DNA of 64,000 nt, taken from the NCBI GenBank assembly GCA_964384465.1, contig CAYLLT010000020.1, positions 2,488 through 66,487 of the forward strand. The letters are read 5' to 3'. The stretch comes from an uncultured Planctomycetales bacterium. GTDB taxonomy: Bacteria > Planctomycetota > Phycisphaerae > UBA1845 > PWPN01. A model generated the notes under the pieces. That model saw only the letters and a list, made by a program, of their open reading frames with translations, did no database searches and was not told the DNA's origin. Shown piece after piece: positions 1,212 to 50,900 of this stretch; within the stretch, counting starts at the first letter, position 1, and each line of letters opens with the position of its first letter. The position numbers and the translations under genes were made by a program.

Positions 1212-1216
1212 GCACT

Positions 1217-1251
1217 GAACCCTGACCCCTAAACCCTGAACCCTCAACCCC
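1217..1251. repeat. Short degenerate AACCCT-type hexamer/heptamer run
   Basis: The sequence is gAACCCTgacccctaAACCCTgAACCCTcAACCCc, immediately 3' of the stop of the 1253-3124 gene. Confidence 0.5.
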
Positions 1252-19291: not shown

Positions 19292-19365
19292 GCCCGGATA
19301 GCTCAATTGGTGAGAGCGTCTGAATCATAATCAGAAGGTTGTGGGTTCGATTCCCTCTCCGGGTA
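19292..19365 (+). tRNA. tRNA with anticodon CAT (elongator Met, or Ile2 if lysidinylated)
   Basis: The cloverleaf reads: acceptor GCCCGGA/TCCGGGT, D arm GCTC-AATTGGTGA-GAGC, anticodon arm TCTGA-ATCATAA-TCAGA, variable loop AGGTT, T arm GTGGG-TTCGATT-CCCTC (one U-U mismatch), discriminator A. CCA is not encoded. It lacks the initiator hallmarks (no three G-C pairs in the anticodon stem). Confidence 0.8.
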
Positions 19366-19413: not shown

Positions 19414-19446
19414 GCTGATAGCTGAAAGCTGACGGCTGACAGCTAT
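19414..19446. repeat. AGCTGA-rich palindromic low-complexity element
   Basis: The sequence is gctgatagctgaaagctgacggctgacagctat, with complementary outer ends atagctg/cagctat. Confidence 0.45.
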
Positions 19447-19608: not shown

Positions 19609-21948
19609 TCATTGATTCTCATCGATCGCTTTGAGAATCATCTCACAGTTGACCACTTTTTCCACCAGGTCGAGAGGCAGGTAGTAGTAATGATTCGACG
19701 CTTCAAAGCCGACGCGGCTGTCCCGGCGGGTGAGCGTGAAGAGGCGGCGGGCGAGTTGGACTTCGTCGCCCAGAATCGTCCGAAGAGTTTCGTCCGCATG
19801 CAACGGGTTGCCGCGCTGCGCAGTGGGCTGCGTCGTGGCGGGGAGTTTGCTGTTGCGGGCGATGATGAAGCGGACCTGATTGGCGGCGCTTTTGAAGTGG
19901 AGGAAGGCGGCTTCGGCGAGGCGGAGGTCTCCGGCGATGGCTGACCACTCGCTTGCGCTCGCGGCTCGGACGTTTTTATCACGCTCGGTGGCGGGAATAT
20001 CGCTGAGTTCGACGACTTCATGCAGGTGCTTCAGGCCGGTCTGCCAGCCGGCGGCGACTTTTTCCAACTGGGTCGCGAGCACCTCGGCGGGATAGACGCC
20101 GCGCCAGCGCTCCAGGTCGTCGTAGGGTATGCCGACCATGGTGGCGGCGTAGCCGCTGGGTTTTGCATAGAGAAGATTCGCCGGTCCCACTTGCATGGGA
20201 CCGTCATAGAGAAAAACGGGGCTGTACGGGAATTCGCTGAACGCTTTGCTGAAGGCAGCCCAGGCTTTGAGAACGTCAGGGGCGGCGGCGGGGCCGTAAC
20301 GCTCGACGGCCGTTTCCTTCAGGGCTTTCTCAACCGTCATTTCTCCCGGCCGGTCGATCAGTTTCTGCACGATTCGCAGGTTTGGCGAAGGATAGCCGCC
20401 GAGCGTCCAGCTCAACATCAGGCCGTCGATGTCCGCGGTGGTCAGGTTCTTCATGTGCTCGGCGACCAGATTCATCACCGGCAGCCACGGTACGGCCGAC
20501 AGCTCCCATGTGCAGTTTACCTGGACTTTGGCGAGGGTCTTGAGGCCGCGCTTTTTGGCGATGGCCCAATGACGTGTCGCGCGCGGACCGGGGCCGACGG
20601 CGGAGATGGAATACTCGTCGACCGTACTGCTCACGCCCCCGCGGGTAATGGGTTTGCTCCACTCGCTGACGCTCATCAGGTAGACATCGGCGGGCAGTGC
20701 GTTGATCGTCGCTTCGGCTTCCTGGTCCGGCCAGCCCCAGTCCCACGCGATGACCTTCGCCTCGGGGCGACCGGCGCGCACGCCGGCGGCGATGGCGGTG
20801 TTCACCTCGGCGATGATTTCCGCGTGCGTGCGCTTGCTGCAACGCGGGCACAACTCCTTGTGGAAATGACTGGCACAGTTGGTGAGGTTTTCCGACGCGG
20901 TGATGGTGAACACGCCGCCGAGGTCGGGCACGTTCTTAAACACGTAGGCGAGCGAGTCGGTGAGCCATTGCCGCACCTGCGGCTGGCTGGTGCACATGGT
21001 GAAGTGGTCATTTTCGGCGATGCCGCGGACCTCCGGGTGGTTCTCGAAAAAGTCGGCCTGCATCGCCCGCGGCTCATTCATGTAAAGATAGACGTTGATG
21101 CCGAAGCGGCGGGCGCGGGTGACCAGCTTTTGGAGGTTTGTGAGACGGACTTCATGATCCTTGCCGAACTCGGGAAAGATCGGGCTGGGGGCCAACTGGC
21201 GGAGCACAGTGTGCAGCCAGACACCGTTGACACCGGCCTCTGCGAGCCGCTGGAGCAGGCCGTCGGGAAACGGGTCGAGCTGCGGGTTCAGCAGCGGGTC
21301 GCCGTAGACGGCGAAGTAGGAATAGAGGAAACGTGGGTGGGATTGCGAATTGCGGATTGCGGATTGCGGATTGGAAGAGGGTACCGCCGCAGACAGATCG
21401 TTCAGGAAAGCGAAACGCGGCTCGGTGGGTTTGGAGAGTTCGTCGCCGAAGTACTTTTCGACGATCGCTTTGATCCCGGCGCAGCGCTTTTCCACTGCTT
21501 CGCTCGGGGACGTGTAGCGGATCGGGTCGCACTGCGGTTTCAGGCCGCCGAGCTTGGTCCAGAGGAAATCGTCTTCACGCAGGGTGTAGACGAGCCGCTC
21601 TTCGTCCCAGTCGAGGAGTTTTAACAGTTGATCGTACGGCAGCAGGTGCCAGTTGCGGCGGATGATGCAGATGTAATTGCGCTGCAACATCTCCGGGCCG
21701 ATCGTTGGATTATCGGGCAAGCCCATCGAGCGGCCAATGGCGCGGATGTTCTCCGGCGTCGTGCCCACCACGTCGGCCATGCGCGCGGCATCGACGCATT
21801 CCCAGTTCCGCCAGACGAAGGCGTGCAACCGATCGGGGAAGTGGGGGAACTCCAGCGCGGGCGGTCCTTTCGCGGCGGGCAGGGTCGTTTGAGCCATCGC
21901 CGATTGCACCAGCAGCACAACAGTGGTCCAACGGATAAGCCTGAGCAT
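19609..21948 (-). CDS. Secreted glycoside-hydrolase-like TIM-barrel protein (family not assignable by eye)
   Basis: I prefer the start MLRLIRWTTVVLLVQSAMAQ at 21948, which looks like a signal peptide. The central region GVNGVWLHTVLRQL...FGINVYLYMNEPRA...GGVFTITASENLTNC...VIAWDWGWP resembles (beta/alpha)8 hydrolases. Confidence 0.45.
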   Translation of the reverse strand: MLRLIRWTTVVLLVQSAMAQTTLPAAKGPPALEFPHFPDRLHAFVWRNWECVDAARMADVVGTTPENIRAIGRSMGLPDNPTIGPEMLQRNYICIIRRNWHLLPYDQLLKLLDWDEERLVYTLREDDFLWTKLGGLKPQCDPIRYTSPSEAVEKRCAGIKAIVEKYFGDELSKPTEPRFAFLNDLSAAVPSSNPQSAIRNSQSHPRFLYSYFAVYGDPLLNPQLDPFPDGLLQRLAEAGVNGVWLHTVLRQLAPSPIFPEFGKDHEVRLTNLQKLVTRARRFGINVYLYMNEPRAMQADFFENHPEVRGIAENDHFTMCTSQPQVRQWLTDSLAYVFKNVPDLGGVFTITASENLTNCASHFHKELCPRCSKRTHAEIIAEVNTAIAAGVRAGRPEAKVIAWDWGWPDQEAEATINALPADVYLMSVSEWSKPITRGGVSSTVDEYSISAVGPGPRATRHWAIAKKRGLKTLAKVQVNCTWELSAVPWLPVMNLVAEHMKNLTTADIDGLMLSWTLGGYPSPNLRIVQKLIDRPGEMTVEKALKETAVERYGPAAAPDVLKAWAAFSKAFSEFPYSPVFLYDGPMQVGPANLLYAKPSGYAATMVGIPYDDLERWRGVYPAEVLATQLEKVAAGWQTGLKHLHEVVELSDIPATERDKNVRAASASEWSAIAGDLRLAEAAFLHFKSAANQVRFIIARNSKLPATTQPTAQRGNPLHADETLRTILGDEVQLARRLFTLTRRDSRVGFEASNHYYYLPLDLVEKVVNCEMILKAIDENQ
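21340..21374. repeat. GCGGATT-type heptamer run embedded in frame in the hydrolase-like CDS
   Basis: The sequence is ggattgcgaattgcggattgcggattgcggattgg. On the coding (minus) strand it translates as NPQSAIRNSQS. Confidence 0.7.
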
Positions 21949-22014
21949 CTGCGTCACCTCGAACGTTCCGGCTCGAAGAATCTGTCCCTGGAACGGAAAC
22001 AACACGCGCCGTTT

Positions 22015-22043
22015 TTGACAACGCGCTTGCGGCATCATACCCT
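22015..22043 (+). promoter_or_regulatory. Candidate promoter of the act operon
   Basis: TTGACA (22015-22020), a 17-nt spacer, then TACCCT (22038-22043), upstream of actA. Confidence 0.4.
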
Positions 22044-22058
22044 GAAACGAACCGACGT

Positions 22059-22742
22059 TTGAAATCACGGGATCACTGCGTGGCTCAGATTTTTCATCCC
22101 TCCATGAACGCGTTTTCCAAAGCGAGCATCTTTGGAGCGGTGTTCATTCTGGCGGGGCTGACGTGGATGTGGGCGCTGGTCATCCGTTCGCCTTACGTGA
22201 CCGAGGCGGGTGTGGTGCGCCAGCAGCCGGTGGAGTTCAGCCACGAACATCACGTCAGCGGGCTGGGCATCGACTGTCGCTATTGCCACACCTCCGTGGA
22301 AGATTCGGCCTTTGCCGGGATTCCGTCCACGCACACCTGCATGACCTGCCACTCGCAGGTCTGGACGCAGGCGCCGATGCTCGAGCCGGTGCGGGAGAGC
22401 TACCGCACGGGTGAGTCGATCCCGTGGACGCGCGTGCACGACCTGCCGGATTTCGCTTACTTCGATCACAGCATTCACGTGCATAAAGGCATCGGCTGCT
22501 CGACGTGCCACGGGCGGGTGGATCGGATGCCGCTCACCTGGCGCGAGCACGCGCTGGATATGGAATGGTGCCTGGGATGCCATCGCGCGCCGGAGCGGTT
22601 TATCCGGCCGCGCGAGGAGGTGTTCAACATGGCCTGGGAGCCGCCGCCGGATCAAATCGAGCGCGGTCGCGAGCTGATCAGGAAGTACGACATCGATTTG
22701 CGTCAGGATCGGCTGAGCGATTGCTGGATATGCCATCGGTAG
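22059..22742 (+). CDS. actA: Alternative Complex III subunit ActA (membrane-anchored pentahaem cytochrome c)
   Basis: Five CxxCH motifs are present (CRYCH, CMTCH, CSTCH, CLGCH, CWICH), with an N-terminal TM helix. The start is either TTG at 22059 or ATG at 22104. Confidence 0.85.
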   Translation: MKSRDHCVAQIFHPSMNAFSKASIFGAVFILAGLTWMWALVIRSPYVTEAGVVRQQPVEFSHEHHVSGLGIDCRYCHTSVEDSAFAGIPSTHTCMTCHSQVWTQAPMLEPVRESYRTGESIPWTRVHDLPDFAYFDHSIHVHKGIGCSTCHGRVDRMPLTWREHALDMEWCLGCHRAPERFIRPREEVFNMAWEPPPDQIERGRELIRKYDIDLRQDRLSDCWICHR

Positions 22743-49632: not shown

Positions 49633-49730
49633 GGAAATCTTCTCCGGTGTCTTTGAGTACGTGGCCGCCTTATAATTGGCGATATCGTCGGTGTTGTCGA
49701 TAGTGCTGGTATTCCGGGGGTACTCGTTTG

Positions 49731-50900
49731 ATGCATGATCGTGGCAAAGTGGTCGTCGCGATGAGCGGCGGCGTGGATTCCAGCGTGGCGGCGTGCCTGC
49801 TGCACGAGCAGGGGTACGAGGTCACGGGTTTGTTCATGCGCACGGGCGTCCATGAGGCGGAAACACAGCAGGAAGAATTGCGGATTGCGGATTGCGGATT
49901 GCGGAATAAAGGATCGCATGCGGACACCCAATCCGAAATTCGTAATTCGCGATCCGAAATCGCGGAACATGATCGTCATCGCGGCTGCTGTAGTGCGGCG
50001 GATGCTTCGGACGCGCGAGCGGTGGCGGGCCGGCTGGGGATTCCGTTCTTCGCGCTCAACTTCAAGGAGCAGTTCGATCGGATCATCGATTACTTCGCCG
50101 ATGAGTACCGCCGCGGGCGCACGCCGAATCCGTGCGTGATGTGCAACGAGCATCTGAAGTTCGGGCGGTTGGCCGATTACGGAGCGGCGGCCGGGGCCGA
50201 CTTCATCGCCACCGGGCATTATGCGCGGATCGATCAGGTTGACGGCGTGCATCGTTTGTGCCGCGGGATCGACGCGCAGAAGGATCAGTCATACGTGCTC
50301 TTCGGAGTCAACCGTGACATGCTCGCCCGCACGCTGTTTCCGATCGGCGGCATGACCAAGGGTGAGGTGCGCGGGCACGCGCGGCGGTTCGGCCTCGCGG
50401 TGAGCGACAAGCCCGATTCAGTGGACATCTGTTTCGTGCCGGACCGCGACTACGCGCGGGTGGTGCGCGAGCGGCGGCCGCAGGCGTTTGCCGAGGGTGT
50501 CGTCGTGGATGCCGACGGCAACAAAGTCGGCCGGCATGGCGGTGTGGCCAACTTCACCATCGGTCAGCGGCGCGGCCTCGGCATCGCCATGGGCCTGCCG
50601 ATCTACGTCACCGGCCTCGATGCCGACACGAACACTGTCACGGTGGGAAGCAAGGACGATCTCGCATCGACCAAGTTGTCGGCGTCCGGCGTCCGCTGGC
50701 TGATCGATCCGCCCACCGGGCCGGTGCGCGCCGGCGTGAAAATCCGCTACGCCCACCGTGCGGCGCCCGCGACAGTGGAGCCTGTCGGGATTGACCGCGT
50801 CCGCGTCGAGTTCGATTCACCGCAACAGGCCATCACGCCCGGCCAAGCCGCCGTTTTCTACGATGATGATGTCGTTCTCGGCGGCGGGTGGATCGATTGA
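49731..50900 (+). CDS. mnmA: tRNA 2-thiouridine(34) synthase MnmA, carrying a ~30-aa in-frame insertion
   Basis: It has the PP-loop VVVAMSGGVDSSVAA and the conserved segments RTPNPCVMCNEHLKF, ATGHYARI, KDQSYVLF, DSVDICFV and TPGQAAVFYDDDVVLGGGWI. The start is ATG 49731 or TTG 49728. Confidence 0.9.
   Translation: MHDRGKVVVAMSGGVDSSVAACLLHEQGYEVTGLFMRTGVHEAETQQEELRIADCGLRNKGSHADTQSEIRNSRSEIAEHDRHRGCCSAADASDARAVAGRLGIPFFALNFKEQFDRIIDYFADEYRRGRTPNPCVMCNEHLKFGRLADYGAAAGADFIATGHYARIDQVDGVHRLCRGIDAQKDQSYVLFGVNRDMLARTLFPIGGMTKGEVRGHARRFGLAVSDKPDSVDICFVPDRDYARVVRERRPQAFAEGVVVDADGNKVGRHGGVANFTIGQRRGLGIAMGLPIYVTGLDADTNTVTVGSKDDLASTKLSASGVRWLIDPPTGPVRAGVKIRYAHRAAPATVEPVGIDRVRVEFDSPQQAITPGQAAVFYDDDVVLGGGWID
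49875..49966. repeat. Inverted arrays of a 7-nt unit (GCGGATT x4, spacer, degenerate AATCCGN x5) inside mnmA
   Basis: The left arm gaattgcggattgcggattgcggattgcggaat is at 49875-49907. The right arm caatccgaaattcgtaattcgcgatccgaaatcgcg is at 49929-49964. Confidence 0.75.

Follow-up and report, generated by a model that had tools for sequence, protein, structure and literature searches.

A dispersed heptamer-stem hairpin repeat lies in frame within mnmA of an uncultured planctomycete

The window analysed here is a stretch of 64,000 nucleotides from contig CAYLLT010000020.1 of an uncultured Planctomycetales bacterium (assembly GCA_964384465.1), and among its genes is mnmA, for tRNA thiolation, whose coding sequence (CDS) carries in frame a hairpin built of tandem heptamers (Table 1). 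The 390-aa open reading frame (ORF) shows the three-domain layout of MnmA in Pfam, with a PP-loop HUP domain (PF03054, 1.3e-69), a PRC barrel (PF20259, 1.3e-17) and a C-terminal beta-barrel (PF20258, 5.2e-22), and a search of the PDB matched its product to E. coli MnmA (2DER) with E = 5.5e-82. The Pfam match to the HUP domain is broken in two at the element, its main stretch beginning at profile position 31. Against 2DER, residues 5-38 of the product align with 18-51 and residues 79-388 with 54-372, so that about 40 residues of the ORF product face 2 residues in 2DER at this site. The ORF reads there ...GVHEA ETQQEE LRIADCGLRN KGSHADT QSEIRNSRSEIAE HDRHRGCCS..., and the catalogue of features is given in Table 1.

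The preliminary description of this DNA had recognized a heptamer hairpin in frame in mnmA, made of four direct units, a spacer and five degenerate inverse units, and the same structure was recovered by Tandem Repeats Finder and by an inverted-repeat search. Tandem Repeats Finder reported positions 49877-49905 as a period-7 array of the unit ATTGCGG (4.1 copies, 100% matches), and the units of the right arm are AATCCGA, AATTCGT, AATTCGC, GATCCGA and AATCGCG. The inverted arms at 49877-49901 and 49929-49953 are 80% complementary over 25 nt, and a 44-nt palindrome was found in addition at 70%. The RNA fold of a 126-nt stretch reached -43.7 kcal/mol (z = -2.5). The GC content of the 111-nt segment that holds the element is 49.5%, compared to 64.3% for the mnmA CDS. 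Allowing up to 2 mismatches, the 14-mer GCGGATTGCGGATT was counted 8 times in the window, where 1.24 were expected, and 0 of 100 shuffles reached that count. Elsewhere in the genome the 33-nt left arm recurs without a change at C4:2489-2521, identities of 29-32 nt occur at more than 10 other loci, and the layout of four perfect units followed by AAT is common to the mnmA copy and C4:2439-2516. In Rfam, nothing in the element reached the gathering score, the best score being that of a plant miRNA hairpin (23 bits, with a threshold of 83 bits), and the only matches in the window were two tRNAs.

Table 1. Features of mnmA, its inserted element and other heptamer arrays in the window.
Feature	Position	Strand	Description	Basis
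mnmA CDS	49728..50900	+	390 aa from TTG 49728; 389 aa from ATG 49731	ORF list
SGGVDS	49764..49781	+	PP-loop motif, intact	Translation; invariant in 59-sequence alignment
Replacement segment	49860..49970	+	111 nt, 37 codons (ETQQEE...EH)	Codon-level comparison with G001, G002 and others
Whole heptamer element	49875-49966		In frame in mnmA	
Left arm	49875..49907	+	GA + 4 perfect ATTGCGG + AAT; reads LRIADCGLRN	Tandem Repeats Finder
Loop	49908..49928	+	AAAGGATCGCATGCGGACACC, 21 nt; reads KGSHADT	Unique in genome
Right arm	49929..49966	+	About 5 degenerate CCGCAAT-type units (CAATCCGAAATTCGTAATTCGCGATCCGAAATCGCGGA); reads QSEIRNSRSEIAE	Inverted-repeat pairs; RNA fold pairing with left arm
HDRHRGCCS	49968..49994	+	Conserved sequence resumes (RHRGCC)	Alignments; C86/C87 invariant in clade
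PCVMCN	50130..50147	+	C-x-x-C catalytic / Fe-S-type motif, intact	C135 and C138 invariant in 59-sequence alignment
DICFV	50424..50438	+	Second catalytic cysteine context, intact	C234 invariant in 59-sequence alignment
Lone arm	21340..21373	-	4.9 GGATTGC units, no inverted partner; reads NPQSAIRNSQS	Tandem Repeats Finder, translation
Host ORF of lone arm	19609-22068	-	819 aa; no Pfam family	
tRNA gene	19292-19365			
GCTGACA-type array	19414-19444		4.4 units	
CTGAACC/CCCTAAA-like array	1215-1250		5.1 copies	

MnmA was searched in 40 related genomes, and the site was aligned at the protein and DNA level. The two genomes of the same genus (congeners G001 and G002) read GVHE-(7-11 residues)-DRHRGCCS; both have a D-A-C-x-P motif and lack the heptamer, and 25 further relatives were aligned besides them. 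The loop at this position has 7-14 residues in both congeners and most of the family, compared to 38 in the source genome (G000), and relative to the congener loop of 21-30 nt the net gain is 81 nt, or 27 codons. Among the 120 best matches from a search of 5.8 billion proteins, the RIADCG and SEIRN motifs were present only in the protein of the source genome; the closest named MnmA proteins, among the matches listed, belong to metagenome-assembled genomes (MAGs) of Phycisphaerae. Since the mnmA copy with its four perfect units is absent from G001 and G002, the insertion post-dates the split from both.

A spacing of about 10-15 residues between the GLFM and CC segments had been taken as usual for MnmA, which holds for E. 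coli-type MnmA but not for the close homologues, as the distance ranges from 17 to 100 residues in the 114 of them where both motifs could be located (several named Phycisphaerae) and is 18-22 in G001 and G002. The preliminary description had also named the observation that would count against an insertion, namely orthologues with a segment of equal length and no repeat. A lineage-specific loop of this kind was rejected, for although loop length varies across the class, G001 and G002, as the nearest relatives, have the short form and carry no repeat. The claim that the insertion derives from a repetitive element is supported by its absence from the congeners and most of the family, and by a genome-wide repeat family described below.

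Other palindromes occupy the same MnmA loop elsewhere. In one further Planctomycetota MAG (L156:1001-2353) three CGCGGGCTNAAGCCCGCG hairpins lie in frame and read RGLKPAA, and in another (L157:1001-2197) an in-frame palindromic repeat reads ...RERP...LPDGRGSD. As the extra length in other lineages comes from other palindromes, the MnmA loop is a permissive site that has been hit independently and recurrently. At least one cysteine is found in the loop of 85 of the 114 homologues, at varying positions, and the D-A-C-x-P motif is seen in relatives (L005, L008, L011). A single cysteine (ADCG) comes with the insert, encoded by the TGC of a heptamer, and in G010 the ancestral codon context TGCGG overlaps the heptamer unit.

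The preliminary description had considered the host protein probably functional. The frame is kept, and the downstream catalytic-cysteine contexts (PCVMCN and DICFV) are intact, as it had stated. It had also raised the possibility that a second, intact mnmA relieves this copy of constraint; a whole-genome search found no second mnmA (the genome is 92% complete). Outside the loop, MnmA of the source genome resembles outgroup proteins as much as its congeners do or more, standing at 77.2% against that of the outgroup G017, compared to 73.4% and 74.4% for the congeners, and judged by these sequence comparisons the gene appears free of relaxed constraint and of any rate acceleration relative to its relatives. 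An AlphaFold2 model based on 59 homologues had a mean predicted local distance difference test (pLDDT) score of 89.5 and a predicted template modelling (pTM) score of 0.85. Residues ~41-88 had pLDDT values of 51-68, with a weakly predicted helix at 42-54 followed by coil. In the model the insert is predicted as a low-confidence loop on a confident core, which, together with the net 27 codons, fits the surface insertion of ~30 aa that had been expected. MnmA of this genome most likely still works, and the additional peptide is most likely translated and harmless.

The arms of the mnmA element belong to an abundant repeat of the source genome. Perfect arrays of at least 3 copies number 105 for period 7, in comparison with 23 for period 6 and 17 for period 8, and AATCCGC (equivalent to GCGGATT) is the commonest unit, making up 45 of the 105 period-7 arrays. 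With up to 1 mismatch allowed per unit, 201 arms were found at 159 loci, 122 of which have a pairing partner, the other 37 being lone arms. Among loci with both arms clearly called, the order ATTGCGG...loop...CCGCAAT was observed in 39 and the reverse in 0. The elements measure 60-110 nt with a median loop of 26 nt, their consensus ends are ATTGCGGATTGC...GCAATCCGCAAT, and the arrays range from 2 to more than 20 units across loci and genomes.

A genome-wide count, including the intergenic and intragenic distribution, had been proposed in the preliminary description, and it places most copies just past stop codons. Where an element separates co-directional genes, its start lies a median of 9 nt past the upstream stop and its end 29 nt before the next start. 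Intragenic loci number 22 of 159 under a strict test (one open frame best-scoring on both flanks) and 51 of 159 under a loose one based on gene calls. These fractions (14-32%) represent a depletion, since 84% of the genome is coding according to our own gene calls; correspondingly, 68-86% of the loci lie outside ORFs, compared to 16% non-coding DNA. Similar loop pairs at distinct loci were found 13 times, against 0.35 in shuffles. Loop pairs at separate loci that are alike throughout their interior indicate that at least part of the family multiplies by copying.

Two related copies, at C17:4270-4341 and C149:8050-8135, have a GCGGATT hairpin nested in CACGGAG/CTCCGTG outer arms. Their loops are identical at 29 of 30 positions although the two loci are unrelated, and the C17 copy contains a further small palindrome (GGGTCGTCGACGACCC) in its left arm.

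The mnmA copy is one of at least a dozen in-frame cases in the source genome. Hosts confirmed by NCBIfam are MutS (two sites), PheT, PurL, FeoB, Mfd, AroDE, DusB, a UbiD-type menaquinone decarboxylase, MqnC and GlnS, and several NCBIfam models split exactly at the element. The mutS elements are located at C36:2608-2679 and C36:3331-3438, the second of them directly before the Walker A motif (…SAMLMLITGPNMAGKST). At the corresponding sites G002 has degenerate copies of the second MutS insert and of the AroE insert, both of which are absent from G001, G016 and G017. Since these two inserts are common to G002 and the mnmA copy is not, the events differ in age, and the insertions have accumulated and been kept in frame.

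The peptides of the intragenic copies are uniform, with a left arm always of the RIADCGL type and a right arm of the NPQSAIR or SEIRNSQ type. The same peptides appear in any frame because a repeat of 7 nt runs through the three frames in turn and the hairpin is alike on both strands. Furthermore, GCGGATT and the variants GCGAATT and TCGGATT contain no stop in any of the six frames. We considered whether this stop-freeness is a special property and rejected the idea, since it is a property, on both strands, of half of all heptamer classes; it enables insertions and is not diagnostic of selection.

Three paralogous membrane proteins with a C-terminal TPR carry the element (C1:22192-22262, C10:28766-28808 and C114:7005-7076) in the same position, after AYVRYVH. 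Each has a different loop, which may reflect an insertion predating the duplication or repeated landing at one site.

Heptamer arrays also occur in other parts of the window. The lone arm listed in Table 1, a second copy of the repeat family of the mnmA element, lies in frame inside a large ORF on the minus strand, a different array is located ~50 nt downstream of a tRNA gene, and a further one is found near the beginning of the window. At least eight families of heptamer units were recognized in the genome.

We believe that a dispersed non-coding hairpin repeat probably entered mnmA after the split from the nearest sequenced congeners and has been tolerated, with MnmA still working. The repeat consists of stems of tandem ATTGCGG/CCGCAAT heptamers around a variable loop, and its landing site is the length-variable loop between beta2 (GLFMR) and helix alpha2 (CCSAADASDA) of the PP-loop domain, where it would have replaced the short ancestral loop with the net gain of codons given above. 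The insert is most likely a translated passenger. Its tolerance would follow because the heptamer and its common variants are stop-free in six frames, because the net length is divisible by three and the loop is by chance free of stops, and because the site is a disordered surface loop; owing to the 7-nt period, every frame gives one 7-residue peptide, RIADCGL for one arm and NPQSAIR for the other. The insertion and its recency, the repeat family, the parallel copies in frame elsewhere and a host gene that is intact and under constraint are shown here, and from them we infer arrival by some copy-and-insert process.

Several results weigh against such an arrival. No clean empty site was seen among the aligned relatives, as the ancestral ~7-10 loop codons (D-A-C-x-P) are unrecognisable beside the element, from which it follows that the event would have replaced the loop and not simply split it. 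In a blastn-short search of the genome, the mnmA loop matched only itself and one 16-nt segment (E = 0.018); without a second genomic copy, no donor can be named. Of 63 loops in the family, about 50 are unique. Target-site duplication was not found above control, flank identity being 0 nt in 38 of 57 cases, 1 nt in 17 and 3 nt in 2. A RAYT or Y1 transposase seems unlikely as the mover, since it is neither flanked by elements nor tracks heptamer content: 39 of 41 relatives have Y1 transposases (PF01797), be they rich in heptamers or not, and of 8 PF01797 matches in the source genome, the three strongest have no element within 1.8 kb and three weak or partial ones have one element 0.4-0.8 kb away, on one side only. 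The order of variant units is no more complementary between arms than in shuffled arms (mean z = 0.13, n = 30). Finally, the source assembly consists of 220 contigs, with 92% completeness and 5.8% contamination.

Some of these results suit an origin in situ, in which a heptamer seed would have grown by polymerase slippage and a subsequent fold-back or template switch would have produced the inverted arm. Slippage has been blamed for over-represented heptameric repeats in bacteria (PMC4692102), and it would agree with the arrays of more than 20 units in other genomes, with the 37 lone arms, with the missing target duplication and donor copy, and with TGCGG at the ancestral loop cysteine codon of some relatives, a possible seed or microhomology. 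We nevertheless regard this origin as unlikely. No heptamer unit exists at the site in G001 or G002, the mnmA loop is no palindrome of the flank, and the complementary variant order predicted by fold-back was observed neither in the mnmA copy nor family-wide. Additionally, loops are common to distant loci in some subfamilies, and the 39:0 arm order together with one 25-mer across many phyla indicates a defined element. An artefact or a decaying gene would explain the locus differently, through misassembly at the repeat or through another copy that has taken over the function of the gene. The source is a metagenome-type assembly with the quality given above, and ~160 occurrences of a repeat can mislead assemblers. 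This reading is nonetheless extremely improbable, since on a 67-kb contig the mnmA halves stand on either side of the element in one frame, an arrangement that no chimeric join would yield, and analogous in-frame copies exist in at least 10 other genes, two of them common to another assembly; against decay stand the intact motifs, the unaccelerated rate and the single copy of mnmA.

The insert might instead be kept for a function, either as an mRNA hairpin that acts in ribosome or polymerase pausing or in transcript stability, or as a peptide, for example by a cysteine that replaces the loop cysteine. The 98-nt core of the mnmA element folds to -37.7 kcal/mol in sense RNA, compared to -30.9 kcal/mol in antisense, and intergenic copies lie where hairpins can act on mRNA 3′ ends; likewise, the one cysteine of the insert (ADCG) could stand in for that of DACxP, a loop cysteine being common among the homologues. 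An mRNA hairpin within the CDS, which had been suggested in the preliminary description, is accordingly possible for the mnmA copy, but does not extend to the intragenic copies in general, in which sense RNA has on average the weaker fold (12 of 16 copies, p = 0.03), the opposite of what selection on mRNA structure would give. No U-tract was found after the hairpins of family elements in the source genome. With a weaker sense fold and no U-tract, the elements are not canonical terminators, and on these two grounds RNA-level selection was rejected. As the insertion is also limited to one species among the genomes compared, has no Rfam match and lies in a region of low model confidence, and as the loop cysteine is not invariant and shifts in position, we consider retention for a function quite improbable, less so than an artefact and more so than slippage. 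Insertion of a dispersed repeat as a tolerated passenger therefore remains the explanation we prefer.

Beyond the source genome, which gave 362 array matches, the arrays are patchy. G002 had 131 matches, G034 76, G023 51, G031 42 and G001 34, most of the 41 relatives had 0, and a reversed-sequence control gave 0 matches. With one genome taken per species, an exact 25-mer was found in at least 120 stretches, whose record titles, among the matches listed, name Acidobacteriota, Planctomycetota, Verrucomicrobiota, Gemmatimonadota, Bacteroidota, Chloroflexota, Armatimonadota, Binatia and proteobacteria; many of the listed stretches have the arm-loop-arm layout. Five genomes, a single one each of Acidobacteriota, Chloroflexota, Bacteroidota, Verrucomicrobiota and Gemmatimonadota, contain 124-688 heptamer matches each. 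The 25-mer was also present in 32 viral-contig stretches of IMG/VR with at most 4 arrays per stretch, which may be phage sequence or the host flank of a prophage call. In a Saprospiraceae MAG of the Bacteroidota (L201), a UvrD-helicase/PD-(D/E)XK nuclease protein has the hairpin in frame within its UvrD_C domain, and in a Chloroflexia MAG (L202) it lies in frame in a long membrane-protein ORF. It is conceivable, though we would put it forward only tentatively, that GCGGATT-stem hairpins form one horizontally spreading family with mobilising machinery, a family at work in six or more bacterial phyla and also found on some viral contigs, which repeatedly writes RIADCGL- and NPQSAIR-type peptides into surface loops of conserved proteins. 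If so, the Rickettsia palindromic elements would have a counterpart that crosses phylum borders, and proteins would have in it a general source of new loops.

Inserts of this kind split domain models and inflate the number of "hypothetical" peptides. They also provide dated events, with an mnmA copy that is species-specific among the genomes compared and mutS and aroE copies common to one congener, and they link two poorly explained phenomena, namely that bacteria have heptameric repeats in excess and that protein insertions can derive from repeats.

Four known systems were compared with the element. Its description as REP-like is apt for its behaviour and not for the defining features of repetitive extragenic palindromic (REP) sequences and their RAYT transposases. 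Like REPs and REPINs (two inverted REPs with a spacer), the elements are high-copy imperfect palindromes, mostly extragenic and often directly past stops. For REPs, the criterion is a 5′ tag, GTAG or CGTC, on a 20-40 nt palindrome (PMC3733652); by that account the present element differs, as it has no tag of the GTAG/CGTC type, ends in ATTGCGG...CCGCAAT and is 60-110 nt long. No Y1 gene in the source genome is flanked by the element, and 14-32% of the copies are intragenic. [quoted passage not shown] Unlike MITEs, it shows no target-site duplication, and its "terminal inverted repeats" consist of simple-sequence arrays that vary in copy number. A parent insertion sequence with matching ends was not identified, Y1 transposases being the only transposases examined.

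In construction, the element is close to the heptameric simple sequence repeats, among which the cyanobacterial STRR heptamers belong. It resembles them in its period of 7, in ~4 units as the typical length, in ~170-190 arrays per genome, in a mostly intergenic position near gene ends, in some inverted stem-loop pairs and in a patchy occurrence over distant lineages; the excess of period 7 over 6 and 8 and the variable copy number are likewise those of a heptameric repeat. Known examples are the GGGAATC arrays of Xanthomonas, of which ~185 exist per genome, most often with 4 units and some as inverted pairs, and the GGGGA(C/T)T repeats of Nostoc (both PMC4692102), as well as TAACTGA repeats common to Beggiatoaceae, Cyanobacteria and Bacteroidetes (PMC4679880). 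The element differs from these in its unit, GCGGATT, in that its loci are as a rule inverted-pair hairpins (122 of 159), with a fixed order in the 39 loci where both arms are called, and in the frequent in-frame colonisation of conserved genes. No paper in the full-text collection searched has the GCGGATT dimer or its peptides.

In behaviour, the closest parallel is with Rickettsia palindromic elements (RPEs). RPEs, reported by Ogata et al. 2000, are described as short palindromic repeats that lie in frame in unrelated housekeeping genes without destroying the host protein, ~100-150 bp long, conserved in sequence over their full length and restricted to Rickettsia (PMC10969869). Measured against that description, the present element is likewise a scattered palindrome that is found in frame in housekeeping genes and adds a family-specific peptide. 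It is unlike RPEs in that its stems are tandem 7-nt units, its loop is mostly copy-specific, its size is ~60-110 nt, any frame of it yields one peptide, and its unit occurs in many phyla. With a host in the Planctomycetota and arms made of heptamer arrays, it is on the same description no member of the RPEs, and only the in-frame insertion of a palindrome is common to both. Colonisation of genes by in-frame palindromes, so far a curiosity of Rickettsia, is thus seen in a free-living planctomycete with a much simpler element, which lacks the REP/RAYT and MITE features we tested and resembles an RPE in behaviour and a heptameric simple repeat in construction.

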